Shown here piece after piece: positions 399 to 12,912 of a stretch of 12,912 bases of DNA (positions are counted from its first letter, which is position 1; every line of letters begins with the position of its first letter). Origin of the DNA: a virus. The translations under genes and the position numbers were made by a program. The stretch covers positions 1 to 12,912 of the IMG/VR virus record IMGVR_UViG_3300032320_002275. One strand, given 5' to 3'. The notes under the pieces are model-generated. The model was not told the origin of the DNA. It ran no database searches and saw only the letters and a program-made list of their open reading frames with translations.

Positions 399-671
399 AT
401 GAGCAATTTTAATATAAAAGCTGGATATATAACTTATGATGTAAACTTTATAACTTATGATGCTAACGGATTTATAACAAGTAATTGCAATAGTATTACT
501 TTTATTAATTATGGTTCTAATGTAGTTACAATAGAAAGCGTTGTATTACAACAAAATCAAAGTTTTTCAATAGACGGAAACGCTGGCGAAATAATGAATA
601 AGCAATTTTTAGCAACCTTTACTGGTGCTGGAACAAATAATTTAGTTACAATAAAGAAAAACTATATCTAG
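399..671 (+). CDS. Small beta-rich protein immediately upstream of the fibre gene; possible vertex or spike-base component
   Basis: 90-aa ORF with alternating hydrophobic/polar beta-strand-like pattern (ITFINYGSNVVTIESVVL). Its stop TAG overlaps the GTG start of the fibre gene (TAGTG). The function is a guess from position only. Confidence 0.5.
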   Translation: MSNFNIKAGYITYDVNFITYDANGFITSNCNSITFINYGSNVVTIESVVLQQNQSFSIDGNAGEIMNKQFLATFTGAGTNNLVTIKKNYI

Positions 672-2692
672 TGAGTAATATTAGCGTAGATTTTGATGTG
701 TTAAACCAAAGGGGTAGCCCAGCTTGGTTTACTGATACTTTTGCCAATATACCTACTGCTGGCTTTGTAGGTCGTATGTTTATTTCAAAAGATACTTTTG
801 CGTTTTATAGAGATACTGGTAGTGGGTGGGATTTAATTGGTGGGCCAGGCATTGGTACATTAACTGGTAGTGGTGTAGTAGGGCAAGTATCATTTTTTAA
901 TGGTACCCAAGTTATTACTGGTAACAATAATTTATTTTGGGACAATGTTAATAGTAGGTTAGGAATTAATACAACGACGCCGGGTGCACCTTTAGATATT
1001 CACGCTACTGGTACTAATGCACAATTTAATGGTACTGGTACAAATAATGCTTATTTAGTATTTCAAAATGCTGGATCTAACAAATGGCGTATAGGCAATA
1101 ATTATAATGGTGGTGCTAATAGTTTTGATTTATATAATAATACAACTACAAGTACAATTTTTTCAGTTAATTCTAATGGTACATTTACATTATCAACAAG
1201 TTTATTTGCTAATTTTGGTATTGCTTTAAAAGATGTATCAGGCGTAAATAGTAATGGAAGTTTAGGTTTAGGTAGTACTGGTGCTGGTTTAAGTCTTGGA
1301 ATGAATGTTACTACTACAAATTATTTTGTATTGCCTACATCAGTAGGATATTCATATACTTTTCCAGCAACTACTGGTACAATAGCTTTAACAAGTAATT
1401 TAAGTAGTTACGTACCTTATACTGGTGTAACGCAAAGTGTAGATTTAGGTATTAATGATTTAAGTTCAAGATATTTAATTGCAAATGGTAATAGTACTGC
1501 TTCAGGAATATTAGCTTTAAAAATTAGCAATACTGTAACTGCTACAAGTGGTTATGGAACAATAGGTGCTTTATCAGGTCAACAATTTGCATTTGTATCT
1601 TATCTTGCAAGTAATTATGATAAAATTGCATATTTAAATTTAAGTGCATTATCTGATAGTACACCTAGAGTATTTACTTTACCAAATGCAACTGGCACCT
1701 TAGCTTTAACAAGTGATATTACATCTGCAATAAGTGGTACTACAAATAGGCTTGCAAAGTTTACCAGTACAAATGTTATTGGTAATAGTATGGTAAGTGA
1801 TGACGGCACTACTTTAACCAGTACTGGTGCTACAAGGTCAAATTTTTATATAAAAGCTGCAAACAATTCGGAATATGGGCAACTTGCATTCACAAATGGT
1901 ACAAACGCATTAAGCGGAGGTATAAGCTATAACAATAGCAGTCAGTATATGCAGTTTGAAACAAATACAAGTGAGTGGATGAGATTGAATAGTAATGGTA
2001 ATTTTTTAATAGGAACTACAACTGATAATGGTAATAAATTACAAGTAAATGGAACTGGATATTTTTCAGGTAATGTAGGAATTGGTGTAACTACTCCAAG
2101 TTATAAATTAGATGTCGCAGCACCTGGTAGTCCATCTGCAAGAGTTAGAAATAGCGATTTAGGTGGAACTGCAACTTTATTATTAGAAACTGCAAATAAC
2201 TTTAGCGGTACTTGTCAAACTTATGTTAAATGTATTGGTGCAGTAGGTAGTGGTGTTTCAGATTTAGCTTTTGGAACTGCGGGTGCAAGTGGTGACGCAA
2301 CTGCAGCTGAAAAAATGCGTATTAGTTCTGCTGGAGTAGTTACAATAACTAATTTAGGAACTGGTGCCGTTACATCAACGGCTGGAGTATTATCTGTTAC
2401 TTCTGATATGTATTTAAAAATAGAAGATGGATTTATAGATAATGCTTTAGAAAAAATATTAAAATTGACTCCTAGATATTTTTATTGGAAAAAAGAAAGT
2501 GGTCTACCTATTGATTTAAGACAATTAGGATTTTATGCTCAAGAAGTTAATCAAGTTTTAGGAGAAGAAGTATCAAATACACCAAAAAAAGAAAGTGATA
2601 AATGGGGTATTTATGATAGAGGTATAATTGCTATGCTAACAAAAGCTATCCAAGAATTAAACCAAAAATTAATAAATAATAATATAAATTAA
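671..2692 (+). CDS. Receptor-binding fibre or spike protein with C-terminal peptidase S74 intramolecular chaperone (autoproteolytic) domain
   Basis: 673-aa ORF with a GTG start. It is Gly/Thr/Asn/Ser-rich and has repeated fibre modules (RLGINTTTPGAPLDI and NVGIGVTTPSYKLDV; TFPATTGTIALTSNLSS and TLPNATGTLALTSDITS). The C-terminus SDMYLKIEDGFIDNALEKILKLTPRYFYWKK...LGFYAQEVNQVLGEEV...IIAMLTKAIQELNQKL matches the S74 pattern (SD.rLK ... w.w ... G.iAQEv ... l.al.i.aiqeL). The predicted cleavage Ser is about residue 578 (nt 2402). Confidence 0.85.
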   Translation: MSNISVDFDVLNQRGSPAWFTDTFANIPTAGFVGRMFISKDTFAFYRDTGSGWDLIGGPGIGTLTGSGVVGQVSFFNGTQVITGNNNLFWDNVNSRLGINTTTPGAPLDIHATGTNAQFNGTGTNNAYLVFQNAGSNKWRIGNNYNGGANSFDLYNNTTTSTIFSVNSNGTFTLSTSLFANFGIALKDVSGVNSNGSLGLGSTGAGLSLGMNVTTTNYFVLPTSVGYSYTFPATTGTIALTSNLSSYVPYTGVTQSVDLGINDLSSRYLIANGNSTASGILALKISNTVTATSGYGTIGALSGQQFAFVSYLASNYDKIAYLNLSALSDSTPRVFTLPNATGTLALTSDITSAISGTTNRLAKFTSTNVIGNSMVSDDGTTLTSTGATRSNFYIKAANNSEYGQLAFTNGTNALSGGISYNNSSQYMQFETNTSEWMRLNSNGNFLIGTTTDNGNKLQVNGTGYFSGNVGIGVTTPSYKLDVAAPGSPSARVRNSDLGGTATLLLETANNFSGTCQTYVKCIGAVGSGVSDLAFGTAGASGDATAAEKMRISSAGVVTITNLGTGAVTSTAGVLSVTSDMYLKIEDGFIDNALEKILKLTPRYFYWKKESGLPIDLRQLGFYAQEVNQVLGEEVSNTPKKESDKWGIYDRGIIAMLTKAIQELNQKLINNNIN

Positions 2693-3469: not shown

Positions 3470-4015
3470 ATGGCTAGTAATAAAAAAGTATTAGCTACTT
3501 TAGTTATATCAACAATAGTAATATATATGTTACGTAAACGAATAGCTACGGCTTTAAATAATACCCCTTTTGCTTTAGTTAGCGACAAGCTATTTAATGT
3601 AATAGCTAGTTTAGAGGGGTTTGTTGCTATACCTATTTGGGACTATATGCAATATAGCGTTGGTTACGGAAGTGGCTATAATTGGGACTTAAAAAGACCA
3701 GTTATTAAAACTGATGTAATTGACAAAGAAACGGCTAAAAAGTGGCTATTATTGGAAGCCCAAGATAAATACGATTTTGTAAAAAGTAAGGTTAAAGTAC
3801 CAGTTACCGATAACCAGTTATTAGCTATGGCTAGTTTTACTTATAATGTAGGCGAAAATGCTTTTGCTAATAGTACACTACTAAGATTGCTTAATGAGGG
3901 GGTTAGTAAGGACAAGGTAGCCCTACAATTTGATAGGTGGGTATATGCTGGGGGAAAGGTTAGTAGTGGCTTAAAAAAGCGTAGAATAGCTGAAAAGCAA
4001 TTATTTTTATCATAG
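3470..4015 (+). CDS. GH24 (T4-type) lysozyme/endolysin with N-terminal TM segment (signal-anchor-release or membrane-tethered form)
   Basis: The sequence SLEGFVAIPIWDYMQYSVGYGSGY gives Glu49 and Asp58 with the spacing of T4 lysozyme E11/D20, followed by the S/T-x-G-Y-G turn. Downstream are TDNQLLAMASFTYNVGENAF and GLKKRRIAEKQLF, both typical of GH24. The N-terminus KKVLATLVISTIVIYMLRKR is hydrophobic. Confidence 0.85.
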   Translation: MASNKKVLATLVISTIVIYMLRKRIATALNNTPFALVSDKLFNVIASLEGFVAIPIWDYMQYSVGYGSGYNWDLKRPVIKTDVIDKETAKKWLLLEAQDKYDFVKSKVKVPVTDNQLLAMASFTYNVGENAFANSTLLRLLNEGVSKDKVALQFDRWVYAGGKVSSGLKKRRIAEKQLFLS

Positions 4016-4044
4016 GGGGGTTTTTGCATAGTATAAAGGTAGAG

Positions 4045-4069
4045 GGGGTATTTTTATACCCCTTTTTTT
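4045..4069 (+). terminator. Intrinsic terminator hairpin at the convergent junction (end of the plus-strand block)
   Basis: GGGGTAT (4045..4051), loop TTTT, ATACCCC (4056..4062), then T7 (4063..4069). An A-run follows on the opposite strand. The hairpin overlaps the stop codon of the minus-strand ORF 4054..4245. Confidence 0.6.
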
Positions 4070-4245: not shown

Positions 4246-4483
4246 TTTTAAGGGGTTTATCGTTTATAGCGAAGTATCTAACATTGTCTTGGGTAACTGC
4301 CCTAATTTTGCGTTTTACTACCAGCGGTGCAACTGCTCGTAATATAGTAAATCTTTGCCATTTTGTAATGTCTTGCAAATCTTTTAAACTTACTACTTTG
4401 CGTTCTAGAATGATAAAATAAATTTTTGTCTTATTTGTCATAGTGTTATATTTGTAGTGAAAAGTGTTAGAGTAGGCAATCAT
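4238..4483 (-). CDS. Small winged-helix-like DNA-binding protein (putative transcription regulator)
   Basis: 81-aa ORF. KIYFIILERKVVSLKDLQDITKWQRFTILRAVAPLVVKRKIRAV resembles a helix-turn-helix plus wing. An alternative start at Met15 (nt 4441) is possible. The CTGACTATAA motif lies 8 nt upstream of ATG 4483. Confidence 0.5.
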   Translation of the reverse strand: MIAYSNTFHYKYNTMTNKTKIYFIILERKVVSLKDLQDITKWQRFTILRAVAPLVVKRKIRAVTQDNVRYFAINDKPLKNG

Positions 4484-4491
4484 TGTCTATT

Positions 4492-4552
4492 TTATAGTCA
4501 GCGAGAAGTCAGCCTAAAAACTGGCTTCTCGTTTTTTTATGACTACAAACTA
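4492..4552 (-). promoter_or_regulatory. Bipartite upstream element, copy 1: TAGTTTG (4552..4546), 44 nt, then CTGACTATAA (4501..4492), then ATG 4483
   Basis: The same two words occur in the same order upstream of two other minus-strand genes. TAGTTTG resembles the Bacteroidota -7 box TAnnTTTG but is one base shorter. Confidence 0.35.
4502..4538 (+). terminator. Strong stem-loop plus T7, oriented as a plus-strand terminator inside the minus-strand block
   Basis: CGAGAAGTCAG (4502..4512) pairs with CTGGCTTCTCG (4521..4531): 11 bp with one G-T wobble and an 8-nt loop. T7 follows at 4532..4538. On the minus strand no U-run follows the stem. Confidence 0.5.
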
Positions 4553-4685: not shown

Positions 4686-4759
4686 ATATCCTTGTTTAAT
4701 AGTTTATAAAATAATTTTTTCGCTAATTCCCATATAATTATTGTTAATATAATTGTCAT
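4682..4759 (-). CDS. Micro-ORF encoding a 25-aa hydrophobic peptide
   Basis: Hand translation: MTIILTIIIWELAKKLFYKLLNKDI. Its ATG overlaps the TGA stop of the helicase gene (ATGA), and its own TGA overlaps the next ATG. Confidence 0.35.
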   Translation of the reverse strand: MTIILTIIIWELAKKLFYKLLNKDI

Positions 4760-5746
4760 AATATTTTATAATTGTTTTTATTATCTTTTACAATATAGTT
4801 TTTATTTATCCACAATTTAATTAAGTTTTTTGCATAGGCTTTACTGGTGGCAGTCCTTTCAATAATTTCGCTAGATATATCATTATAGGGCATTGGCATA
4901 GTAACTATTTGATGCAATAATCGTTTACTTTCAATTTCATCTAAGTCGGTAGCTTTTTTTCCACTATTCTTTGCTTTGTCGGTTTCAGTTTGCTCAAATA
5001 TGCCGTTAAAATTCATTAATGTAATAGGTTCAAAGTCGGAATCGCTACGCATAAAACGGCTGGATAGTACATAGGTATTTTTATCTTTGTCTTTTGTAAT
5101 ATCTAAAGTGGATTGAGCAAACCTATCACTAGCACTACCAATGTGTCCAGTAGTCATTAAATTGCTTTTTGACTGGTGCAAAACCGATATTAGCAATATA
5201 TTATAATGCTTAGTTATCTTTTTTAGCCAGCTAGTTAATAAACTACTTTCTTTCTCATCATTGTAATTTACCAATAAATCAAGCAATCCGTCCACAATTA
5301 GTATAGAGCAGTCTAAATTAAGCTCTAAATAGCGTTCAATCATTAATTTAATGGCGTTGCTGGAATCTTCGCGAACTTGAAATGCGTCAAAATAAGGTGG
5401 TAAATCGTTAATTTGAGCAAATCCTTTAATTTTATTAATAGTCCTATAAAAGTCGTAGTCGCTACTTTCGGTATCAATTAAACATACTTTAGCCCTATTT
5501 TGGGGGGTATGCAATTTCATTGTGAAAATATCATAGGTATTAAATACGCTACTAATCATAGCACATATAAAGGTTGATTTACCAGCTTTAGGGTAACCCC
5601 GAAAATATACAAAAGTTTTGGAGTGAGCCGATATGTTTACCTTGTATGGTAAAAATAATGTTTTCCTTGCTAGGTATATAGTTGGGGTTGTATTTGCGTT
5701 TTTCTAGTAAATCATCAATGTTTATCTTATAGTCAGTATTTTCCAC
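4756..5746 (-). CDS. RecA-fold replicative helicase (DnaB C-terminal / RepA, AAA_25-like) with C-terminal wHTH; reading frame interrupted by a +1 change at 5597..5600
   Basis: Walker A GYPKAGKST (5598..5572), Walker-B-like ILIVDGLLDL, ISVLHQSKS and GHIGSASDRFAQSTLDI are typical of DnaB-C/RepA helicases. The tracked ORF (4756..5559) starts downstream of the P-loop. The N-terminal 52 codons (GTG 5746 to stop at 5588) are in a different frame. Confidence 0.75.
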
Positions 5747-6082: not shown

Positions 6083-6269
6083 TAGTAATAGGTTTTAATG
6101 GTTCTGCTTCGTAAATTTTGTAGTCGGGTTGCGTAGGCTTTACCTTATATTCATTTTTCCACATTGTATATAGTTTTCCTTCAATAGTAAAACTGATATA
6201 GGTTTTGCTATTTTTTGTGGTTTTGTCCCAAGCACCAATACTTGTTTTTTTTTCAGTTTCGTTTTGCAT
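6075..6269 (-). CDS. Hypothetical small protein (64 aa); faint resemblance to DUF736-type small beta proteins
   Basis: IGAWDKTTKNSKTYISFTIEGKLYTMWKNEYKVKPTQPDYKIY recalls the G.w.k....G..yls.kl....a.l..n......pdy.v pattern. This comes from memory only, so the assignment is weak. Confidence 0.45.
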   Translation of the reverse strand: MQNETEKKTSIGAWDKTTKNSKTYISFTIEGKLYTMWKNEYKVKPTQPDYKIYEAEPLKPITNE

Positions 6270-6464: not shown

Positions 6465-6749
6465 TTATAAATTTTTTAAGTGTTGGTTAAGTGAGGATAT
6501 ATCTTTATCAAATTGCTCAATGCTATCATCAATAATATTAATAATTTCATTAGGCAAATGAAATGGTAACATATCATTAGTAATATGCACCATTTTAATT
6601 TCTGCGTCATCAGTTGCAGTAAATAAAATTGAAACATCTCGGTACTGGGTTAATTTAAAAATTTCTACCAGTTTTTCTTTTTTGCGTGCAATTTTTTGGA
6701 TTTCAAGCAATACGGCGTTGGTACTGCTCAACGATTTGAATTGAATCAT
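6465..6749 (-). CDS. Hypothetical protein (94 aa), first gene of the minus-strand block
   Basis: ORF begins 11 nt downstream of a CTGACTATAA motif. No domain recognised. Confidence 0.5.
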   Translation of the reverse strand: MIQFKSLSSTNAVLLEIQKIARKKEKLVEIFKLTQYRDVSILFTATDDAEIKMVHITNDMLPFHLPNEIINIIDDSIEQFDKDISSLNQHLKNL

Positions 6750-6760
6750 TTTTGTAAATT

Positions 6761-6815
6761 TTATAGTCAGTAAAATAGAATAACGATATAAAATAAAGGA
6801 TATTATATCAAACTA
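6761..6815 (-). promoter_or_regulatory. Bipartite upstream element, copy 3: TAGTTTG (6815..6809), 38 nt, then CTGACTATAA (6770..6761), then ATG 6749
   Basis: It shares 13 nt (ATTTTATAGTCAG on the plus strand) with copy 1 and 12 nt with copy 2. Confidence 0.35.
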
Positions 6816-7103: not shown

Positions 7104-7529
7104 ATGAACAAAAGAAATTGGTGGTTACTTCCAGCAACAATTATTGGTTATTTAGTTTATAAAAAATATGTACTAGCAAAAACTGTGTCAGTTTTTTTTA
7201 AGACAATAGATTTTAGTAGTATGTCATTATTGTACCCAACTATTAACATAGTAGTACAAGTAAATAACCCAACCGATATTACGGCAACAATACAAAATAT
7301 TAAAGGAGATTTATATTTAAACAATACTTATATAGGTAATGTAATAGGAATAACGCCTACTACATTAGTAACTGGTAGTTCTATTTTAAGAATACCAGTA
7401 ACTTTATCTTATACTGGTGTAGCATCTTTAATAAAAGGTCTAAGCACAAAAGGAATTAATTTAAGATTTAACGGAAGTATAATGGTTGATTTAATAGTAT
7501 TGCCTTTAAATTTTGAGTATAATATATGA
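7104..7529 (+). CDS. N-terminally anchored protein with LEA_2 (LEA14 / NDR1-HIN1-like) beta-sandwich-like domain
   Basis: TM segment WWLLPATIIGYLVYKKY, then TINIVVQVNNPTDITATIQNIKGDLYLNNTYIGNV...GSSILRIPVTL. This matches the LEA_2 pattern (l.v.NPN.. i..i.g.l.l.g..ig ... g....v.vpv). First gene of the plus-strand block. Confidence 0.5.
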   Translation: MNKRNWWLLPATIIGYLVYKKYVLAKTVSVFFKTIDFSSMSLLYPTINIVVQVNNPTDITATIQNIKGDLYLNNTYIGNVIGITPTTLVTGSSILRIPVTLSYTGVASLIKGLSTKGINLRFNGSIMVDLIVLPLNFEYNI

Positions 7530-8503
7530 TTAGTAAAAATATGGTGCTACAAAAATTGGCACCTTATACCAATTTTAAAAAAGTATTAATTGAGGACCAA
7601 AATACTGGCGATATTATACAAGGTATTTTAGATAATCACGATAACTATCAAAGTGAATACGACAAGATTAGTGAAATGTTTATCGACGATAATGAAGTAG
7701 AAACGGCAAAAAATGTTTTTGAATTTTTAAAAGATAATGTTCCCTATTATGTTGAGCCTATTGAAAAACAAACTTTAAGAAGTCCTAGTGCTATTATAAG
7801 TATTAAACAAGGTGCCGACTGCAAAAGTTACGCCAGTTTTATTAACGGCATTATGAGTTCACTCAATAGAAAAGGAATATTTAAAGTACCACTAGCGTAT
7901 CGTTTTGCTAGTTATAGATATGATACAAGAGAACCCCAACACGTTTTTGCTGTATTATATCCTGGTACTAAAAATGAGGTATGGGTAGATCCCGTACTAA
8001 ATAAATTCGACCAAAGAAAAGAACCAGTATTTATAAAAGATAAAAAAATAAAAATGGCACTAATAGCTATGTCAGGCACATCAACACAAGGTACGGCAAC
8101 TTTACAAGAGATGCAAAATTACCGAGATAAATTAGTTAGTTTAAAAAACAAATATTTGAATAGTGGTTTTATTACGCCAGGAAGTCAAGAGGAAAACCAA
8201 TATATTATGGCGATTGATAAAGTAACAAAAGCTATTCAATTTGCAAGTATTAGCGGAGTTCCAAATGTTAATGGAATATTTGATAGTCCCGACGAAGGCG
8301 GTATAGATTGGGGTAATATATTTGGAAAACTTATTGATACTGGTGCAAGTTTAATACAAAGAAATAACCAGCCTAGTGGTGGTATGTTTTTTCCTACTAC
8401 GCAATCTACTATGCAACCTATTACAAATCAAGGTATTAATATTAATACATTATTATTAATAGGTGCTGGTGGTTTAGCTTTATATTTAATTCTTAGGAAA
8501 TAA
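7526..8503 (+). CDS. Transglutaminase-like (Cys-His-Asp) peptidase-fold protein with C-terminal TM tail
   Basis: KQGADCKSYASFINGIM (Cys99), PQHVFAVLY (His139) and EVWVDPVLN (Asp155) occur in the order and spacing of the transglutaminase-core triad. C-terminal anchor is LLLIGAGGLALYLILRK. ATGA overlap with the upstream gene. Confidence 0.6.
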   Translation: MISKNMVLQKLAPYTNFKKVLIEDQNTGDIIQGILDNHDNYQSEYDKISEMFIDDNEVETAKNVFEFLKDNVPYYVEPIEKQTLRSPSAIISIKQGADCKSYASFINGIMSSLNRKGIFKVPLAYRFASYRYDTREPQHVFAVLYPGTKNEVWVDPVLNKFDQRKEPVFIKDKKIKMALIAMSGTSTQGTATLQEMQNYRDKLVSLKNKYLNSGFITPGSQEENQYIMAIDKVTKAIQFASISGVPNVNGIFDSPDEGGIDWGNIFGKLIDTGASLIQRNNQPSGGMFFPTTQSTMQPITNQGININTLLLIGAGGLALYLILRK

Positions 8504-8505
8504 TA

Positions 8506-9096
8506 ATGGCATATTATACTAATAATATAGGTTATAAGCAAATGACAGCTATTGGAACCAAATTTATACCAATATATACTGGCGAACCAATATCATCAGT
8601 AATTGCTACTGCTGGTGCTACATTAATAGCGTCTTGGAATGACTGGTTTACACGCCCAGCGTTTGACGCAAATAGATTAATTAATAGTGTTAAACCACAA
8701 TTAGCTAATAGTGATGCAAGGCAAAGATTAGCTTTAGTAATAGCTACTTCTCAAAAAATTAGTCCTAGAGCTAGGGATGTAGGTGCAGAAAAACTTTTTT
8801 TATGGTATAAAAATACATACAACGAAGATTATAAAACATTATCATTAGAAGATAAAGAGTATTATAATAAGTTTTTACAAACTGCAATACAAACGCAAGC
8901 TGACGGAAATAATTTTTGGGCTAATTCTCAAAGAGCAATGTTTACAAATTCAGAATTAAATTATAATGCAAATCCAGTACAAGCAATTACAAATACTGCA
9001 AGCAATATATTTACTAATTTAACAAAAAGTCCAAGTAGTTTAATTTTATATACTGGCATTGGACTAGGTTTATATTTAATATTAAAAAATAAATAA
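8506..9096 (+). CDS. C-tail-anchored membrane protein, unknown function
   Basis: 196-aa ORF. C-terminus LILYTGIGLGLYLILKNK is nearly the same anchor as the preceding protein, and the two share the 12-nt string TTTATATTTAAT. Confidence 0.55.
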   Translation: MAYYTNNIGYKQMTAIGTKFIPIYTGEPISSVIATAGATLIASWNDWFTRPAFDANRLINSVKPQLANSDARQRLALVIATSQKISPRARDVGAEKLFLWYKNTYNEDYKTLSLEDKEYYNKFLQTAIQTQADGNNFWANSQRAMFTNSELNYNANPVQAITNTASNIFTNLTKSPSSLILYTGIGLGLYLILKNK

Positions 9097-9419
9097 TGAA
9101 AAAGGGAAATTTAATTTTTATCGTAGGGGGTTTAGGTTTATTGTATTATTTTTATATGCGTAAAAAAAATCCAATACCAGTTACTAAAACATTAGTACCA
9201 ACTCAAACAAATGTAGAACCATATGTTTACCCAGCTGGTTTATTAGAACTAGACTTTGTTGCAAATGGAGTAGAAACTGCTCAATTATATCAAGGGCAAT
9301 TAAGACCTATGACTGCTGCATATGCTCAAATGTATGCACCAAATCATTGGGCAAATACTAAAATAATACCAGATATTATATATAGAAGCATTCCAAGAGG
9401 TGCAGTATTAGACGTATAA
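9096..9419 (+). CDS. N-terminally anchored membrane protein, unknown function
   Basis: 107-aa ORF with TAATG overlap with the upstream gene. N-terminal TM is LIFIVGGLGLLYYFYMRKKN. Confidence 0.55.
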   Translation: MKKGNLIFIVGGLGLLYYFYMRKKNPIPVTKTLVPTQTNVEPYVYPAGLLELDFVANGVETAQLYQGQLRPMTAAYAQMYAPNHWANTKIIPDIIYRSIPRGAVLDV

Positions 9420-9429
9420 AATTAATAAA

Positions 9430-9966
9430 ATGACACAAGCACAAAAAACTGCAAAAGCAAAATTTAAGCAAGCTATTGCTTATAGACAAAAAACTGGCGT
9501 TTCTTTAAAAGAAGCGTTTGCACATATATACGGAAAAAAGAAAGTAGGTGCAGTTAAGAAAAAGTCGGCACCTAAAAAGAAAGTAGCTAAGAAAAAAGTA
9601 GCTAAAAAAGTTGTTAAGAAAAAATATAGTTTAAATAAAAAGAAAGATAAACTATACTCAGCTAAGAAACCAGGTAAGCGTTTAAGTAAAACTGGTAAAA
9701 CTTATTACGAAAATAGAGAAAATCGTAGCGACAAAGGAAAGTTATTAGGTATTGAAAGTAATTTAAGTATGAGTTTAATTAAAAGACTTGAAGATATTAA
9801 TAAAGAAATAGAAAAAAGGCAAGATGTTATTGCTAATGTAATACAAAATAAAACATATTTTGTAAATAAAAATGGCAAATCTTGGTATCCTAAATTTATG
9901 AAATTAGCAAAAGGTCATATTGCTGAATTGAAAAAACATAAAATAGAAATTAAAAAATTAGTTTAA
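9430..9966 (+). CDS. Highly basic Lys-rich, histone-H1-like protein (putative DNA-condensing core protein)
   Basis: The stretch GKKKVGAVKKKSAPKKKVAKKKVAKKVVKKKYSLNKKKDKLYSAKKPGKRLSKTGK has 26 Lys in 56 residues by my count. It includes KKVAK repeats encoded by 15-nt DNA repeats near 9577..9606. The C-terminal half looks helical. Confidence 0.65.
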   Translation: MTQAQKTAKAKFKQAIAYRQKTGVSLKEAFAHIYGKKKVGAVKKKSAPKKKVAKKKVAKKVVKKKYSLNKKKDKLYSAKKPGKRLSKTGKTYYENRENRSDKGKLLGIESNLSMSLIKRLEDINKEIEKRQDVIANVIQNKTYFVNKNGKSWYPKFMKLAKGHIAELKKHKIEIKKLV

Positions 9967-10006: not shown

Positions 10007-10438
10007 ATGGCAAGAAGAAAAAGAGCAACTAAAAAAAGTAGCTACCGCAGACGCAGAATGTCAGGCGTAGGTGCTATGGGTAGTCAAATTACTGGTGCAT
10101 TATATACAATCGCTGGTGCCGTTGCTGCTGGGGCAGTAACAAAATTTTTACCCGCAACTATGAACGAAAAGCTAAAAGCAGCAGTTCCAGTAGTAGTAGG
10201 TATTATGTTACCTAAATATTTAAAAGGTAATGTCGGACAAGGTATCGGTGCTGGTATGGTAGCAACTGGTGGACTTAAATTAGTACAATCATTCGGCATT
10301 CTTAACGGAATCGGTGCTTATGGTGGTTATGCTGGTTATCAAGTACCGCAAGTAGCTGGTAATTATAACAACGCTGGTTTAATGGATACTAGCTATATGA
10401 CGCCGTCAATCGCTGGTATGGATGAGGGGAATTGTTAA
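10007..10438 (+). CDS. Membrane protein with Arg/Lys-rich N-terminal arm and Gly/Ala-rich TM segments
   Basis: MARRKRATKKSSYRRRRM has 10 basic residues out of 18. It is followed by GSQITGALYTIAGAVAAGAV, AAVPVVVGIMLP and GIGAGMVATGGL. Confidence 0.6.
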   Translation: MARRKRATKKSSYRRRRMSGVGAMGSQITGALYTIAGAVAAGAVTKFLPATMNEKLKAAVPVVVGIMLPKYLKGNVGQGIGAGMVATGGLKLVQSFGILNGIGAYGGYAGYQVPQVAGNYNNAGLMDTSYMTPSIAGMDEGNC

Positions 10439-10495
10439 TCTAACACTATTCACCTTTAAATAAAAATTTAATAAAAAAATAAAAATTAAAAAACA

Positions 10496-11155
10496 ATGGC
10501 AACTCAAATGGGACAAAGAATGGTCTTTGAAAATGCAAAAGCATTAGTAAGAGGTCTAGGTTATAGCGTAGATCAAGCAGTTCTAACGCAATCTTATTTA
10601 CGCAGTGAGGTAGCTTTAAGCACTTCTATTGCAAACTATCATTTACCAGTATTGGTTAATGATACCCAAAATGGTGCGGTTCGTGTAAACGAAAAGCGTC
10701 TAAATTTACAAGATATATTTGTGGCAAGTGAAATTTCAGTATTAATTGGAGTAGGTTCTGCAACAAGTACAAAAGCACCATTATATACTTACCCTAATGG
10801 TGTTATATTTACAAGTGCAACAGATGATGATTTATTGTCAATTTACAATGGCTCATTGAATTTAACAATTAACAATCAACAAGTATTACCAGCTTGGGAC
10901 GTATATCGTCATTACTACGTGCCACAAACACAAGGTGGTGTTGGTATTACTGCACAAACTATTTTCCCAGTAGATCAAAACGATGGTAGCGAAAATGGAT
11001 TTTATCCAGTAGAGCCAGGAATCGTATTTAATGGTGCTGCTAACATCAATTTCCAATTAACGGCAAATGGTGCACCAGCAACAATTTTAGCTAATAGTTT
11101 TATCTGCGTAATTCAAAGAGGTATCTTGTTACAAAACGTAACAACTGTTAAATAA
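10496..11155 (+). CDS. Candidate major capsid protein (beta-rich, 219 aa); fold not verified
   Basis: It has the longest A-rich leader in the plus block and is followed by a structured GC-rich terminator-like element. Composition is Asn/Gln/Thr/Val/Gly-rich with no TM and beta-strand-like periodicity. Assigned by context and composition only. Confidence 0.4.
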   Translation: MATQMGQRMVFENAKALVRGLGYSVDQAVLTQSYLRSEVALSTSIANYHLPVLVNDTQNGAVRVNEKRLNLQDIFVASEISVLIGVGSATSTKAPLYTYPNGVIFTSATDDDLLSIYNGSLNLTINNQQVLPAWDVYRHYYVPQTQGGVGITAQTIFPVDQNDGSENGFYPVEPGIVFNGAANINFQLTANGAPATILANSFICVIQRGILLQNVTTVK

Positions 11156-11165
11156 AAATATGCTT

Positions 11166-11216
11166 TGGCGAAGCTAAACGCTACTGCCAGCGGTCAGTAA
11201 CTACCGCTATTTTTTA
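11166..11216 (+). terminator. Tandem hairpins plus T-run after the candidate capsid gene (attenuator or terminator)
   Basis: Imperfect hairpin TGGCGAAGC...GCTACTGCCA (11166..11189). Then AGCGGT (11189..11194) pairs with ACCGCT (11203..11208), followed by ATTTTTT. The segment is locally GC-rich in an AT-rich genome. Confidence 0.45.
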
Positions 11217-11235
11217 AATTATTAAAAAAAAAGAT

Positions 11236-11643
11236 ATGCGTATTAAAAGATACCAAGCCGTAGAAATCAATGTACCAAGTGGAAGTACTTTAACTTTCTT
11301 TTTGTTCACTGACCAACCACAGCTAAGAAATGCTAAAATACAAGGTATTCAAGTATATACGCCTACTGCAATTACAAAAACGCCTTTAAGCGGTGCTACG
11401 CCAGTAACACTAGCAGATTTAAAGCAATCGTTTTTAACATTGTATCAAGGCGACTTACAAATTATATATAGACTACCATTGTTAGCGTTTAACAATATAC
11501 AAGATTTAACAAGTCCACACGTTTGGGAATTACCTGAAATGAACGATATTGATATAAGCTGGACTAAAAGTAGTGTTACAACGGCAGCTGCATTAGGCAC
11601 TACTGGTGTAACTTATAGTTTCGGAATTTATTATTATTTATAA
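11236..11643 (+). CDS. Second small beta-rich structural protein candidate (135 aa), possible minor or second capsid protein
   Basis: STLTFFLFTDQPQLRNAKIQGIQVYTP ... LQIIYRLPLLAF ... GVTYSFGIYYYL has beta-strand-rich character and no TM. It is adjacent to the 219-aa candidate. Confidence 0.35.
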   Translation: MRIKRYQAVEINVPSGSTLTFFLFTDQPQLRNAKIQGIQVYTPTAITKTPLSGATPVTLADLKQSFLTLYQGDLQIIYRLPLLAFNNIQDLTSPHVWELPEMNDIDISWTKSSVTTAAALGTTGVTYSFGIYYYL

Positions 11644-11655
11644 TATAGTTTTATT

Positions 11656-12369
11656 ATGGCAGTTCAAAAAGCAATGACTACTGGAACTAACGGAGTTATG
11701 GACTGGTTTGACAGAAATGCAACCAGTCCGTACTACTCGGTTTGTGAGATAATTAGTCCTACAAAAAAAGAGTTACTATTTTCTTGTAATGAGGATAGTG
11801 TAGATAATGCAAGGCGAATTTTAGAAGAAAATATATCTGCGTTTGAACAAAACGGAGTTAATACCTTATATGCTTTAATCTTGCACCCTAAAAAAGACAA
11901 GACGGGATATATTACTATGAATACGCCAAGCCACGCAATGTTAAAATTTCGACCAGCAGAACTAGAGGCACCAATCTACGGAGTAGGTGCATATACTGGT
12001 GGGGGTGGTAGCAATCGTTATGAAATGGAAAAAATAATGGAAAAGCTAAATTTATTGGAAAGTAAGTTAGCAGAAGCAGACTTAGAGGAATACGAAGAAA
12101 CGCCACAAAACCCAATAAACGCTATGCTTAGTAATATGGCTGCAAATCCACAAGTACAAGAGGCATTAATTAGCGGTTTAATTGGCGTAGTAGGTGGTTT
12201 TTTAAATAATGGCAAACAAATGCAAGGTGTAGCTGGAATAGGACAAGTTAATGAAGAAGCTATTTTAATATTGGATAGCTTAATAAAAAAAGGAGTTAGT
12301 TTAGAACATTTAAGAAAATTAGATGCTATGACTAATACCAAATTACAAAGTTTATTAATAATGTTATAA
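11656..12369 (+). CDS. Hypothetical protein with central acidic coiled-coil-like segment (scaffold or assembly candidate)
   Basis: 237-aa ORF containing YEMEKIMEKLNLLESKLAEADLEEYEE and a Gly-rich hydrophobic patch LISGLIGVVGGFL. No enzymatic motif recognised. Confidence 0.45.
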   Translation: MAVQKAMTTGTNGVMDWFDRNATSPYYSVCEIISPTKKELLFSCNEDSVDNARRILEENISAFEQNGVNTLYALILHPKKDKTGYITMNTPSHAMLKFRPAELEAPIYGVGAYTGGGGSNRYEMEKIMEKLNLLESKLAEADLEEYEETPQNPINAMLSNMAANPQVQEALISGLIGVVGGFLNNGKQMQGVAGIGQVNEEAILILDSLIKKGVSLEHLRKLDAMTNTKLQSLLIML

Positions 12370-12854
12370 TGGCAATAGATAAGCAAACGCAAAAACTTTT
12401 ATTATATACTGCAATAGGTGGTGGTGCGTATTTTTTAATACTAAAGCCACTTCTTATTAAATTAGGTGTATTAAAAAGTGCATTAGAATTAGAACAAGAT
12501 TATACTCAAAAAGTAAATATAGATGCGTATATTAATAATTCTATAAAAACACAAACGCCAACTAAATCAAAAGGGGAATGGCAGATTATAGCAGACCAAA
12601 TATATAACGATCTAAAGTTTAGCGGAATTGCCGACAATAAAAGTGATGCTGGCTATCAAGTAGCAAGAGTACAAAATGATGCCGATATTGCTACATTAAT
12701 ACAAGTTTTTGGAATGAGGCAAGAAAGTTTTTTTGGTATTAATATTGGGGGACTACAAAATTTACCACAATTTATTATAGGTAATTTAGATAAAAGCGAA
12801 ATAGCAAAGATTAACGATAATTACGCACGAAAAAATATAAAATTTAGATTTTAA
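12369..12854 (+). CDS. N-terminally anchored membrane protein, unknown function; spans the circular junction
   Basis: 161-aa ORF with TAATG overlap with the upstream gene. TM segment is LLLYTAIGGGAYFLILKPL. Its last 65 nt are the sequence at 1..65. Confidence 0.55.
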   Translation: MAIDKQTQKLLLYTAIGGGAYFLILKPLLIKLGVLKSALELEQDYTQKVNIDAYINNSIKTQTPTKSKGEWQIIADQIYNDLKFSGIADNKSDAGYQVARVQNDADIATLIQVFGMRQESFFGINIGGLQNLPQFIIGNLDKSEIAKINDNYARKNIKFRF

Positions 12855-12912
12855 ATAAAGAATTATGAAAAATAAAAGTACAATGTTATTAGTAGGTATT
12901 GGAGTAGCTTAT
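12790..12912. repeat. Terminal overlap, right copy (exact duplicate of 1..123)
   Basis: Identical 123-nt string at both window ends. Confidence 0.95.
12865..12912 (+). CDS. Duplicate copy of the 5' end of the 76..372 gene (partial at window edge)
   Basis: Identical to 76..123. Confidence 0.9.
   Translation, partial: MKNKSTMLLVGIGVAY

Follow-up and report, generated by a model that had tools for sequence, protein, structure and literature searches.

A circular 12.8-kb phage genome with two adjacent predicted single jelly-roll proteins and no detected packaging ATPase

Which proteins build the capsid of the virus presented above? The window, that is, the whole stretch of 12,912 nt that was analysed, contains two adjacent genes coding for small proteins of 219 and 135 amino acids. 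The first-pass annotation had suggested that they form a split capsid, in which two separate single jelly-roll proteins take the place of a single large one, as in Thermus phage P23-77. To our knowledge, only Thermus phages, haloarchaeal viruses and one Sulfolobus virus have capsids made of separate single jelly rolls that stand upright. Such capsids are central to ideas on the origin of the double jelly roll found in PRD1, adenoviruses and giant viruses.

The window is a complete circular genome. Bases 12790..12912 are an exact 123-nt repeat of bases 1–123, an assembly overlap, so the circular unit has 12,789 bp. Comparable terminal overlaps are found in 35 related contigs, and the units of the relatives range from 8.8 to 13.6 kb. 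One related contig of 36,986 bp is a concatemer: a gene set of about 12.7 kb is repeated, and the 20.7 kb examined cover more than a whole unit. The element is a virus and not a plasmid: it has an S74 fibre, a lysozyme and many small anchored proteins, and its relatives are found in IMG/VR. No ORF has a Pfam or PHROG match to the capsid, portal or terminase of HK97-fold tailed phages. No rolling-circle Rep protein was detected, unlike the situation in FLiP and PhiCjT23, and Rfam and tRNA scans of the genome were empty. The main features are given in Table 1.

Table 1. Features of the window, in order of position
Feature	Position	Strand	Evidence
90-aa beta-type protein, conserved core	399..671	+	stop overlaps fibre start
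673-aa fibre/spike, C-terminal intramolecular chaperone domain	671..2692	+	Pfam Peptidase_S74 E=2.8e-7
181-aa lysozyme	3470..4015	+	Pfam Phage_lysozyme E=7e-28; PHROG endolysin
Replication helicase-like P-loop ATPase	4756..5746	-	Walker-A scan; AAA_25 (PF13481) in relatives
Four structural-module genes (141, 325, 196, 107 aa)	7104..9419	+	Pfam, hydrophobic anchors
178-aa lysine-rich protein, candidate DNA-condensing protein	9430..9966	+	54 K+R vs 13 D+E
143-aa protein, candidate membrane-to-DNA linker	10007..10438	+	translation, conservation
A/T-rich 57-nt spacer 5' of 219-aa gene, putative leader or translation enhancer	10439..10495	+	sequence
219-aa predicted major capsid protein	10496..11155	+	ORF (ATG), AlphaFold2 model
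Terminator-like hairpin and T-run, directly 3' of 219-aa gene	11189..11215	+	consensus scan, covariation
135-aa predicted small jelly-roll capsid protein	11236..11643	+	ORF (ATG), AlphaFold2 model
237-aa conserved structural-module protein	11656..12369	+	acidic coiled-coil-like centre, hydrophobic Gly-rich stretch
161-aa protein with N-terminal hydrophobic anchor	12369..12854	+	start overlaps 237-aa gene stop

Both ORFs are present exactly as the first-pass annotation had placed them, and they are indeed the best capsid candidates. According to Pfam, PHROG, charge and hydrophobicity, the remaining ORFs code for enzymes, a fibre, basic proteins or membrane proteins, and none of them is a credible capsid candidate. 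The fibre matches PHROG tail-fibre families, with E-values down to 2e-16, and the lysozyme has an N-terminal hydrophobic anchor (residues 7–21). The block of four structural-module genes includes a LEA_2-domain protein (Pfam E=2.6e-6) and a transglutaminase-like protein (DUF553 E=2.5e-4). Terminal hydrophobic anchors scoring at least 1.9 are found in its 325-, 196- and 107-aa proteins, while an N-terminal hydrophobic segment was recognized in the 141-aa protein by eye and from an hhalign match; hhalign also indicates that the anchors of this block resemble one another. The 325-aa ORF was considered as a possible capsid protein and ruled out by its transglutaminase-like domain and C-terminal anchor.

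The 143-aa protein has a basic N-terminus (MARRKRATKKSSYRRRR) and a hydrophobic, Gly-rich body, and its gene is also immediately 5' of the capsid gene in contigs L007, L008 and L009 and in most metagenome loci. The lysine-rich protein is kept in L007 and L008. The gene for the 237-aa protein, which has no family match in Pfam and PHROG scans, starts only 12 nt 3' of the 135-aa gene. The 90-aa protein is conserved in L007, L008, L009, L091 and L092; profile comparison gives no relationship to either the 135-aa or the 219-aa family, and we regard it as an alternative candidate for a vertex protein or penton adaptor.

As had been proposed, both candidates are soluble and beta-rich: they lack the terminal hydrophobic anchors of their membrane-protein neighbours, and their AlphaFold2 models are mostly beta. 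The model of the 219-aa protein (pLDDT 91.9, pTM 0.88) has an N-terminal helix (residues 4–20), followed by a single jelly roll of about eight main strands, several of them 10–13 residues long. The hydrophobicity maximum of this protein lies within a predicted strand (residues 74–86). The model of the 135-aa protein (pLDDT 85.2, pTM 0.78) is also a single jelly roll of about eight strands, a bare barrel when compared with the long loops and the helix of its larger neighbour. The proposal of two single jelly rolls thus agrees with confident predicted models, one jelly roll in each. The call is based on predicted structure and not on length. The first-pass annotation had also argued that no ORF is large enough for a double jelly roll; this argument fails, since the double jelly-roll capsid protein of PhiCjT23 has only 239 aa (PMC9719478) and size alone rules out nothing.

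Comparison of these folds with the capsids that the first-pass annotation had named was only partly favourable. The best matches include P23-77 VP17, SPV1 VP4, PRD1 P3 and an HHIV-2 chain, but the structural matches of both proteins are weak (TM 0.2–0.46, rmsd 6–15 Å), so that relatedness to any known capsid lineage is not demonstrated. Foldseek gives no PDB match at E<=1e-3 for either of them. The match of the 219-aa protein with the lowest E-value is P23-77 VP17 (E=4.8e-3, probability 0.35, TM 0.23), its match with the highest probability is SPV1 VP4 (0.89), and PRD1 P3 and the FLiP penton are also found. Capsid proteins of PRD1, SPV1, EhV and PBCV-1 have probabilities of 0.5–0.89, against 0.07–0.25 for those of circovirus or picornavirus type. 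Six matches at E<=1e-3 are found in BFVD, the best of them with TM 0.44/0.46 and a probability of 1.0. Two BFVD entries with consecutive accessions, I1ZBH9 (211 aa) and I1ZBI0 (256 aa), both match the 219-aa protein with probabilities of 0.97–1.0; a literature search on these two accessions gave nothing relevant. The role of major capsid protein very probably falls to the 219-aa protein. We infer the orientation of the jelly rolls in the shell, which monomer models do not reveal.

For the 135-aa protein, the best PDB match is again SPV1 VP4 (6oj0_A, probability 0.90, TM 0.39), followed by the trimeric cement protein of KHP40 (TM 0.39/0.42). HHIV-2 chain 6h82_b is also matched (TM 0.41, probability 0.47); the length of this chain is consistent with the penton protein VP9 minus 40 disordered residues (PMC6414509). 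Many of the lower matches come from sandwiches of non-capsid proteins, among them botulinum toxin Hc, CBM32 and the furin P domain, with probabilities of 0.04–0.28. The 135-aa protein would be a penton or vertex protein, or a lower-copy partner in the shell.

A 135-like gene is invariably located 3' of the 219-like gene, and the pair is kept in every complete relative. Two old 135-like paralogues, 31–38% identical, are found in 27 related loci. This is an observation that a plain penton role does not simply predict; PRD1 builds a heteropentameric penton base (PMC9719478). Two genes of the major capsid type are found in one relative, contig L092, for which no close relatives were detected in IMG/VR or metagenome contigs when its own protein was used as query. 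No relationship is detectable between the 219-aa and 135-aa families (hhalign probability 0.8%). Profile–profile comparison of both with 11 other gene families of the genome gave no paralogy, only shared membrane anchors were matched.

This is a very large and uncharacterised group, mostly from lake-type metagenomes. The relatives of the 219-aa protein form 624 clusters in a library clustered at 50% identity (E<=1e-3), all of about 215–240 aa; at 90% identity, the number of clusters exceeds 1,000. When all major ORFs and 109 + 56 family members were scanned with Pfam and PHROG, nothing was found for either protein. Sequence and profile searches against PDB chains gave no match for either of them, and a set of 50,697 phage records, searched by tblastn and megablast, gave chance matches only. 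In the 10 clusters which were looked up, the source names are "hypothetical protein" or none. There is no cultured representative, and literature searches found no published description of the family. The GC content of the relatives lies between 25 and 55%, and some of them are Tara-labelled (TARA_) contigs, so that "Bacteroidota-type", as the element had been called, is too narrow; they have been binned with uncultured Bacteroidetes and with other bacterial MAGs. The possibility of a prophage or of a known host was considered and rejected: in the species-genome collection, the family is confined to MAG bins, where its contigs are short or element-sized (1.5–12.9 kb).

A characteristic feature of the pair is the hairpin between its genes. 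The 219-aa gene is followed by AGCGGT-N8-ACCGCT at 11189–11208 and then by ATTTTTT, as found in a consensus scan. Such a hairpin with its T-run is present in 118 of the 131 distinct spacers between 219-like and 135-like genes, whereas shuffling of the spacers gives it in 12 of 131. It is absent from all 111 spacers 5' of the 219-like gene, and only one of the 57 spacers 3' of the 135-like gene contains it. In an alignment of 30 spacers, five of the six stem pairs have changed on both sides and 91.7% of the cells pair; the observed score was reached by none of 500 shuffles. The hairpin is also found in the distant loci L007, L008, L010 and L091. The terminator-like hairpin described by the first-pass annotation is therefore a conserved feature with compensatory changes. 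As it is located exactly between the two genes, throughout the family and with covariation, it argues for unequal dosage and favours a lower copy number for the 135-aa protein. The hairpin and T-run may instead stabilise the RNA or be leaky. The long leader claimed on the other side of the 219-aa gene corresponds to the A/T-rich spacer in Table 1, which lacks any terminator-like structure and may act as a leader; the median length of this spacer is 53 nt in the relatives. Codon usage, taken as a proxy for expression, does not separate the 219-, 135- and 237-aa genes.

Walker-A scans of the window and of 172 related loci detected no packaging ATPase. In the window, a single ORF has a Walker A motif; it codes for the helicase-like protein, on the strand opposite to the capsid genes, and in this genome the gene is interrupted inside Walker A. 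In the 172 loci, the only Walker-A ORFs which form a family are homologues of this replication helicase. The claim that the pair has no associated ATPase agrees with these results. The pair is kept throughout a very large family, for which we found no published description.

Our preferred reading, to which we give about an even chance, is that the element is a tailless phage which bears fibres and lacks a packaging ATPase, with a layout nearer to that of SPV1 than to P23-77. It would probably contain an internal membrane. The 219-aa protein would be the major capsid protein, with a single eight-stranded jelly roll as in the capsids of the PRD1 type, sphaerolipoviruses and SPV1. Since its gene ends at the conserved terminator-type hairpin, its message would be produced or retained in excess of the downstream genes. 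The 135-aa protein would be a second, minimal jelly-roll capsid protein, expressed with the downstream structural genes of lower copy number, and would most likely be placed at the five-fold vertices as penton base, or at another lower-copy position in the shell. The DNA may be condensed by the lysine-rich 178-aa protein and by the 143-aa membrane protein with its basic tail, and may be enclosed during assembly and not pumped in.

A tentative alternative is that the 219-aa protein is the large and the 135-aa protein the small major capsid protein, and that their heterodimers form pseudo-hexameric capsomers like VP17/VP16 of P23-77 or VP4/VP7 of HHIV-2 and HCIV-1. The vertices would then be made from another protein, such as the 90-aa protein, whose gene is coupled to the fibre gene; with this conserved candidate as penton, the 135-aa protein could serve as a subunit of the shell. 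The constant presence of adjacent single jelly rolls in every complete relative fits such a model, as do the position of VP17 as the top PDB match of the 219-aa protein by E-value and the consecutive accessions of I1ZBH9 and I1ZBI0, which both match this protein. The loops and helix of the 219-aa protein could form a tower on one subunit, the other being a bare barrel. Duplication of the small gene could reflect the fact that the small protein has both paired and unpaired positions in sphaerolipovirus capsomers (PMC6414509). On the other hand, small subunits are the more numerous in sphaerolipoviruses, with four VP7 and two VP4 in two-tower capsomers (PMC6414509), while a conserved, covarying terminator hairpin separates the two genes here. 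The match to VP17 is weak, neither protein has a sequence or profile relationship to the other or to any solved capsid protein, and the small gene is present in one or two copies depending on the relative. A packaging ATPase is also lacking, and the genes are in the reverse order with respect to the usual block of ATPase, small and large protein. The part of the P23-77-type proposal which stands is the presence of two adjacent predicted single jelly rolls; the large-then-small order, the terminator between them and the variable copy number leave a co-major, heterodimeric role unsupported. At least equally suitable for this layout would be a single jelly-roll protein in hexamers with a jelly-roll penton, as in archaeal SPV1 (PMC8459092).

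It is unlikely that the 219-aa protein builds the shell alone, with the 135-aa protein as an accessory beta-sandwich that serves, for example, in cementing or decoration, as an adaptor for the fibre or spike, or as a carbohydrate-binding module. The KHP40 cement protein is its second-best match and many of the lower ones are non-capsid sandwiches, but these last have far lower probabilities than SPV1 VP4. The differences in copy number between lineages and the location of the gene 3' of the terminator, together with minor structural genes, would suit an accessory protein; however, this gene invariably adjoins the capsid gene and not the fibre gene, and an icosahedral jelly-roll shell needs a five-fold protein, for which the 135-aa protein is the candidate of best size. 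We consider very improbable that the 219-aa protein is a minimal double jelly roll comparable to those of PhiCjT23 and PM2, with the 135-aa protein as its penton, in a divergent member of the PRD1/PM2/FLiP group. Two jelly rolls do fit in 239 aa (PMC9719478), and PRD1 P3 and other double jelly-roll proteins are found among the matches of the 219-aa protein with probabilities of 0.6–0.87. Nevertheless, the alignments with PRD1 P3 cover about 190 query residues with TM of only 0.3 (query) and 0.2 (target), and the capsid proteins PM2 P2, FLiP MCP and PhiCjT23 MCP are absent among the best 50 matches listed. A confident model with about eight main strands and one N-terminal helix is far from the sixteen strands required, and a compact double jelly roll was rejected on this strand count. 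As regards packaging, we know of no ATPase identified in FLiP and PhiCjT23, the FLiP-type phages of Flavobacterium, which would suit this last model.

A wider interpretation, which is possible but still doubtful, is that the family represents unrecognised phages of aquatic bacteria, from 25 to 55% GC, with circular genomes, no ATPase and a membrane-lined icosahedral capsid of separate vertical single jelly rolls. Their shells would be built from one large protein and one or two small ones. If true, they would be a bacterial, mesophilic counterpart of the P23-77/sphaerolipovirus and SPV1 capsids, and a living example of the separate-barrel stage which has been proposed to precede the double jelly-roll capsid protein. 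Such capsids would then be present in common bacteria of lake-type and Tara-labelled metagenomes, and an abundant group of non-tailed phages would be added, for which the annotation pipelines in use have no label. The natural variants of the family, with one or two small and one or two large subunits, could be used for testing the assembly of shells without a motor.

Comparison with known systems shows several partial similarities. Like PM2, FLiP, PhiCjT23, PRD1 and Autolykiviridae, this virus has a small genome, many small membrane proteins and vertex spikes or fibres, and the 135-aa protein has the size (about 125–150 aa) and the predicted fold of the single jelly-roll pentons of double jelly-roll phages. 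Unlike Corticoviridae, Finnlakeviridae, Tectiviridae and Autolykiviridae, it has one predicted jelly roll per chain, and no other ORF qualifies as a double one. No sequence or profile match to double jelly-roll membrane phages was found. FLiP and PhiCjT23 infect Flavobacterium.

P23-77 and sphaerolipoviruses share a gene block formed by the packaging ATPase, the small and the large major capsid protein, and viruses of this type have thermophiles or halophiles as hosts. P23-77, HHIV-2, HCIV-1, SH1 and SNJ1 are tailless and contain a membrane, with adjacent genes for small and large single jelly-roll proteins and a separate jelly-roll penton (PMC6414509). In current classifications P23-77 belongs to Matsushitaviridae, HHIV-2, HCIV-1 and SH1 to Sphaerolipoviridae, and SNJ1 to Simuloviridae. 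The virus described here resembles P23-77 and HHIV-2 in its adjacent large and small predicted jelly rolls, with weak matches to VP17 and 6h82_b. It differs in that the ATPase, small, large block is not found: the order is large then small, with a conserved terminator between them. Searches of PDB chains and phage records gave no sequence or profile match to these vertical single beta-barrel viruses.

SPV1 (Portogloboviridae) has a circular genome of 20 kb, an icosahedral shell that covers an internal layer of lipid, and a basic nucleoprotein core (PMC8459092). Its shell contains two single jelly-roll proteins, VP4 in hexamers and VP10 in pentamers, and none of the nine ORFs to which a function has been assigned is a packaging ATPase (PMC8459092). 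No sequence similarity links the present virus to SPV1. VP4 is the PDB match of highest probability for both the 219-aa and the 135-aa protein, yet with TM of only 0.32–0.39. SPV1 has a hyperthermophilic archaeal host and is not lytic; Portogloboviridae are restricted to hyperthermophilic Sulfolobales. In contrast, the relatives of this virus are found in bacterial MAGs, and its 12.8-kb genome codes for a phage lysozyme and a phage-type fibre. Like SPV1, it combines a circular genome with two different single jelly rolls, here predicted, and no detected packaging ATPase; it also codes for a lysine-rich protein and many anchored proteins, and may have a nucleoprotein core and a membrane. With a probable major capsid protein, a second jelly roll of presumably lower copy number, no ATPase and a circular genome, its layout would be closer to SPV1 than to P23-77.

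The 219 aa protein is predicted to consist of one jelly roll, not two. Its AlphaFold2 model, built on an alignment of 109 sequences (29–60% identity to the query), has a pLDDT of 91.9 and a pTM of 0.88, with strands at residues 29–40, 47–49, 74–86, 120–125, 128–135, 170–179, 184–189 and 201–213, a helix ahead of them (4–20) and another at 108–117. Foldseek found nothing in the PDB at E ≤ 1e-3. Viral capsid jelly rolls predominate in the list of PDB matches: chain 6oj0_A of Sulfolobus polyhedral virus 1, SPV1 (prob 0.89, TM 0.32/0.37), PRD1 P3 (prob 0.72–0.87, TM about 0.33 on the query), the EhV and PBCV-1 capsid proteins (prob 0.51–0.63, TM 0.31–0.35 on the query), the FLiP penton (E = 1.3e-2, prob 0.38, TM 0.20/0.26) and P23-77 VP17 (E = 4.8e-3, prob 0.35, TM 0.23). 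Circovirus and picornavirus capsid proteins reach a prob of only 0.07–0.25. In BFVD, six matches have E ≤ 1e-3. Geometrically the best of them is I1ZBH9, an unnamed 211 aa protein (prob 1.0, TM 0.44/0.46); the next accession, I1ZBI0, also matches (prob 0.97), and SPV1 VP4 is in the list (prob 0.75). We are fairly confident that the 219 aa protein is the major capsid protein.

The model of the 135 aa protein, built from 56 sequences (28–84% identity), has a pLDDT of 85.2 and about eight strands. Its best Foldseek matches are SPV1 6oj0_A (prob 0.90, TM 0.39/0.33), the KHP40 cement protein (TM 0.39/0.42) and the 135-residue chain 6h82_b of HHIV-2 (TM 0.41). In the HHIV-2 penton protein VP9, 40 N-terminal residues are disordered (PMC6414509); the chain is presumably VP9 without them, which its length fits. 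Both models look like small viral jelly rolls, so the fold proposed for this pair in the first-pass annotation stands, with matches too weak to place either protein in any known lineage. Profile comparisons found no kinship among the 90, 135 and 219 aa families.

Both ORFs are found exactly where they had been annotated, in a long run of rightward genes that lie close together. Bases 1–123 are an exact copy of 12790–12912, so the window is a whole genome, a circle of 12,789 bp. The ORFs at 12369–12854 and 76–372 adjoin on this circle. Similar terminal overlaps are present in 35 related contigs, with units of 8.8–13.6 kb (median 12.35 kb), and a JGI contig of 36,986 bp repeats a gene set of about 12.7 kb, with more than one full unit within the 20.7 kb read. 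No HK97-type capsid, portal, terminase or tail genes were detected in the genome, whose tRNA and Rfam scans gave no match. As judged from sequence, its gene content would suit a small phage that lacks a tail and has an internal membrane.

Features of the genome and of two related contigs
Feature	Position	Strand or block	Remarks
219 aa ORF	10496–11155	+	ATG start
Terminator-like hairpin	11189–11208, then T-run		between the 219 and 135 aa genes
135 aa ORF	11236–11643	+	ATG start
Fibre, 673 aa	671–2692	rightward	C-terminal Peptidase_S74 chaperone domain; PHROG tail-fibre matches
Lysozyme		rightward	N-terminal hydrophobic anchor
LEA_2-domain protein		rightward	
Transglutaminase-like protein, 325 aa	7526–8503	rightward	weak DUF553 match (E = 2.5e-4, just above Pfam cut-off); C-terminal membrane anchor
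178 aa protein		rightward	very lysine-rich, 54 K+R
143 aa protein		rightward	basic N-terminus, Gly-rich hydrophobic body
Several small proteins		rightward	one terminal hydrophobic segment each
Small ORFs and sole P-loop protein (helicase-like)		leftward	relatives carry PF13481 (AAA_25)
L116, tandem 135-like genes	7463–7882 and 7903–8310		
L092, duplicated genes (example ranges)	3–928 and 949–1883		

The core shared even by the most distant genomes consists of the 143 aa basic membrane protein, the 219-like and 135-like proteins, the transglutaminase-like protein and the 90 aa beta-type protein. The weak domain match of the transglutaminase-like protein, which is kept in the most distant relatives, is of the cysteine-protease type. 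The protein may act as a protease associated with the virion, or on the cell wall as an enzyme. The fibre is flanked by small conserved beta-type proteins of 90 aa (399–671) and 86 aa (2694–2954). Their stops and starts overlap or abut (the stop of the 90 aa gene overlaps the start of the fibre), which suggests coupled translation and a three-protein vertex complex. On the minus strand, the motif ACTGACTATAA(A/G)AT recurs at 4466–4503, 5701–5738, 6108–6125 and 6735–6772, with at least two copies just upstream of the leftward start codons at 6749 and 4483; an early promoter, an operator or a leader element is possible. Where the rightward and leftward blocks meet, there are two terminator-like hairpins (4041–4066 and 4500–4533, with 11 and 13 pairs, a T-run after each) that are stronger than any other in the genome.

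A six-frame Walker A scan of the circle gives one real site, in the helicase. Across 172 loci, 84 Walker A ORFs belong to that helicase family. The remaining 17 encode transglutaminase-like, lysine-rich or fibre proteins in which the motif occurs by chance: The lack of an associated ATPase, already remarked for this genome, holds for the whole family. The helicase-like gene (4756–5746) is interrupted inside Walker A, at 5588–5610 on the minus strand. The coding strand is TTT TCG GGG TTA CCC TAA (F S G L P stop), reading resumes in the +1 frame with K A G K S T, and most relatives have F S G L P K A G K S T unbroken. One extra T (CCC-T-AAA) is present in the window and in the related locus L011, and TAACA at the same codon boundary in six other loci (L012, L014, L015, L017, L018 and L020). 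Both insertions give TAA after the Pro codon, with open flanking frames. This could be programmed +1 frameshifting, other recoding or a clade-specific broken gene.

The most informative of the features first remarked is the terminator-like hairpin after the 219 aa gene, which is indeed present. We have taken the spacers from the 219-like gene to the next 135-like gene in all loci: Of 131 distinct spacers, 118 contain a stable hairpin with a T-run after it, versus 12 of 131 when shuffled. In most of the 13 exceptions a strong GC hairpin is kept and the T-run is weaker. A stable hairpin with a T-run is found in none of 111 spacers that precede the capsid gene, and in one of 57 after the 135-like gene. 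The stem is 91.7% paired in an alignment of 30 sequences, where five of six pairs vary on both sides (AGCGGT/ACCGCT, GACGGT/ACCGTC and GGTGGGG/CCCCACC are variants with two-sided change); no shuffle equals its score, and slid controls collapse. At the matching place, four distant loci (L007, L008, L010 and L091) carry hairpins that are just as strong but unrelated. A second, weaker hairpin (TGGCG-N8-CGCTA, 11163–11181), just upstream of the terminator stem, recurs altered in relatives; 60.7% of aligned cells pair, a low value due partly to register shifts between subgroups. In the simplest reading, the capsid gene would close a transcript, or an attenuator would stand after it, and its message would exceed those of the 135 aa gene and other structural genes. 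The 135 aa gene is followed by the next gene after 12 nt, and later genes overlap or abut.

The family is widespread. For the 219 aa protein, a word-indexed search gave 1,029 clusters at 90% identity and an exhaustive search 624 clusters at 50%, nearly all of 215–240 aa; the 135 aa protein gave 406 clusters. The names in ten clusters checked are "hypothetical protein" or none. Neither protein has a match in Pfam, PHROGs, PDB sequences or 50,697 deposited phage genomes. We have found no published description in the literature on the family or its closest known analogues, nor in that on I1ZBH9 and I1ZBI0. IMG/VR contains at least 219 loci, and metagenome contigs include Tara-labelled (TARA_) records, such as L093 and L118. 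In the species-genome collection the family is found solely in metagenome-assembled bins, mainly "uncultured Bacteroidetes", with one "Proteobacteria"; no integration was seen there, as the contigs are short or element-sized (1.5–12.9 kb). The family extends beyond AT-rich genomes. The GC content of relatives is 25–55% (54–55% in L009 and L010), which points to hosts beyond Bacteroidota: It is unlikely that these are the only hosts.

Single 219-like and 135-like genes are found in 137 of 172 loci. In 27 others, all within L093–L136, a single 219-like gene is followed by two tandem 135-like genes, only 31–38% identical to each other, and in L092, a short contig, two 219-like genes stand ahead of two 135-like ones. 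How many genes encode the small jelly-roll protein therefore varies across the family.

We favour, at about even chances, a reading in which the 219 aa protein is the major capsid protein and the 135 aa protein a lower-copy vertex or shell protein. The terminator between the genes suggests unequal dosage, and a length of 135 aa is usual for a penton. The two co-major subunits proposed in the first-pass annotation are possible, with clearly lower probability. The 219/135 gene pair is strictly conserved, the contrast between a large protein with loops and a small bare barrel resembles VP17/VP16, and the true vertex protein could be the fibre-linked one of 90 aa. The duplicated small gene might mirror the two small-subunit positions in sphaerolipovirus capsomers. 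Its duplication can also fit a penton role, since the PRD1 penton base is heteropentameric, built of two proteins (PMC9719478).

That the 135 aa protein is instead an accessory sandwich seems unlikely, and a double jelly roll hidden in the 219 aa protein is very improbable. Size would allow the latter: PhiCjT23 has a double jelly-roll capsid protein of only 239 aa (PMC9719478), so the earlier argument from ORF size is unsafe. Jelly-roll orientation, oligomers, copy numbers, membrane, genome strandedness and packaging mode are what we infer, as is all that goes past sequence, conservation and predicted monomer folds.

Two known architectures with separate upright jelly rolls have been weighed, the sphaerolipovirus/P23-77 type and the SPV1 type. 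The former has a conserved gene block: ATPase, small, large. Its small and large major proteins heterodimerise, a third jelly-roll protein is the penton, and a packaging ATPase is present (PMC6414509). In SPV1, VP4 forms hexamers and VP10 pentamers, and a packaging ATPase is not among the assigned functions (PMC8459092). Our family shares more with the SPV1 type: its genome is circular, it encodes a strongly basic protein and no ATPase, and the 219 and 135 aa proteins both have SPV1 VP4 as their match of highest probability. The ATPase block known from sphaerolipoviruses and P23-77 is missing, the hosts are not the archaea that portogloboviruses infect, and there is no double jelly roll as in PRD1, PM2 and FLiP. 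Since it fails tested defining features of each, the family should not be included in any of these groups: They are the known systems which it most resembles in kind.
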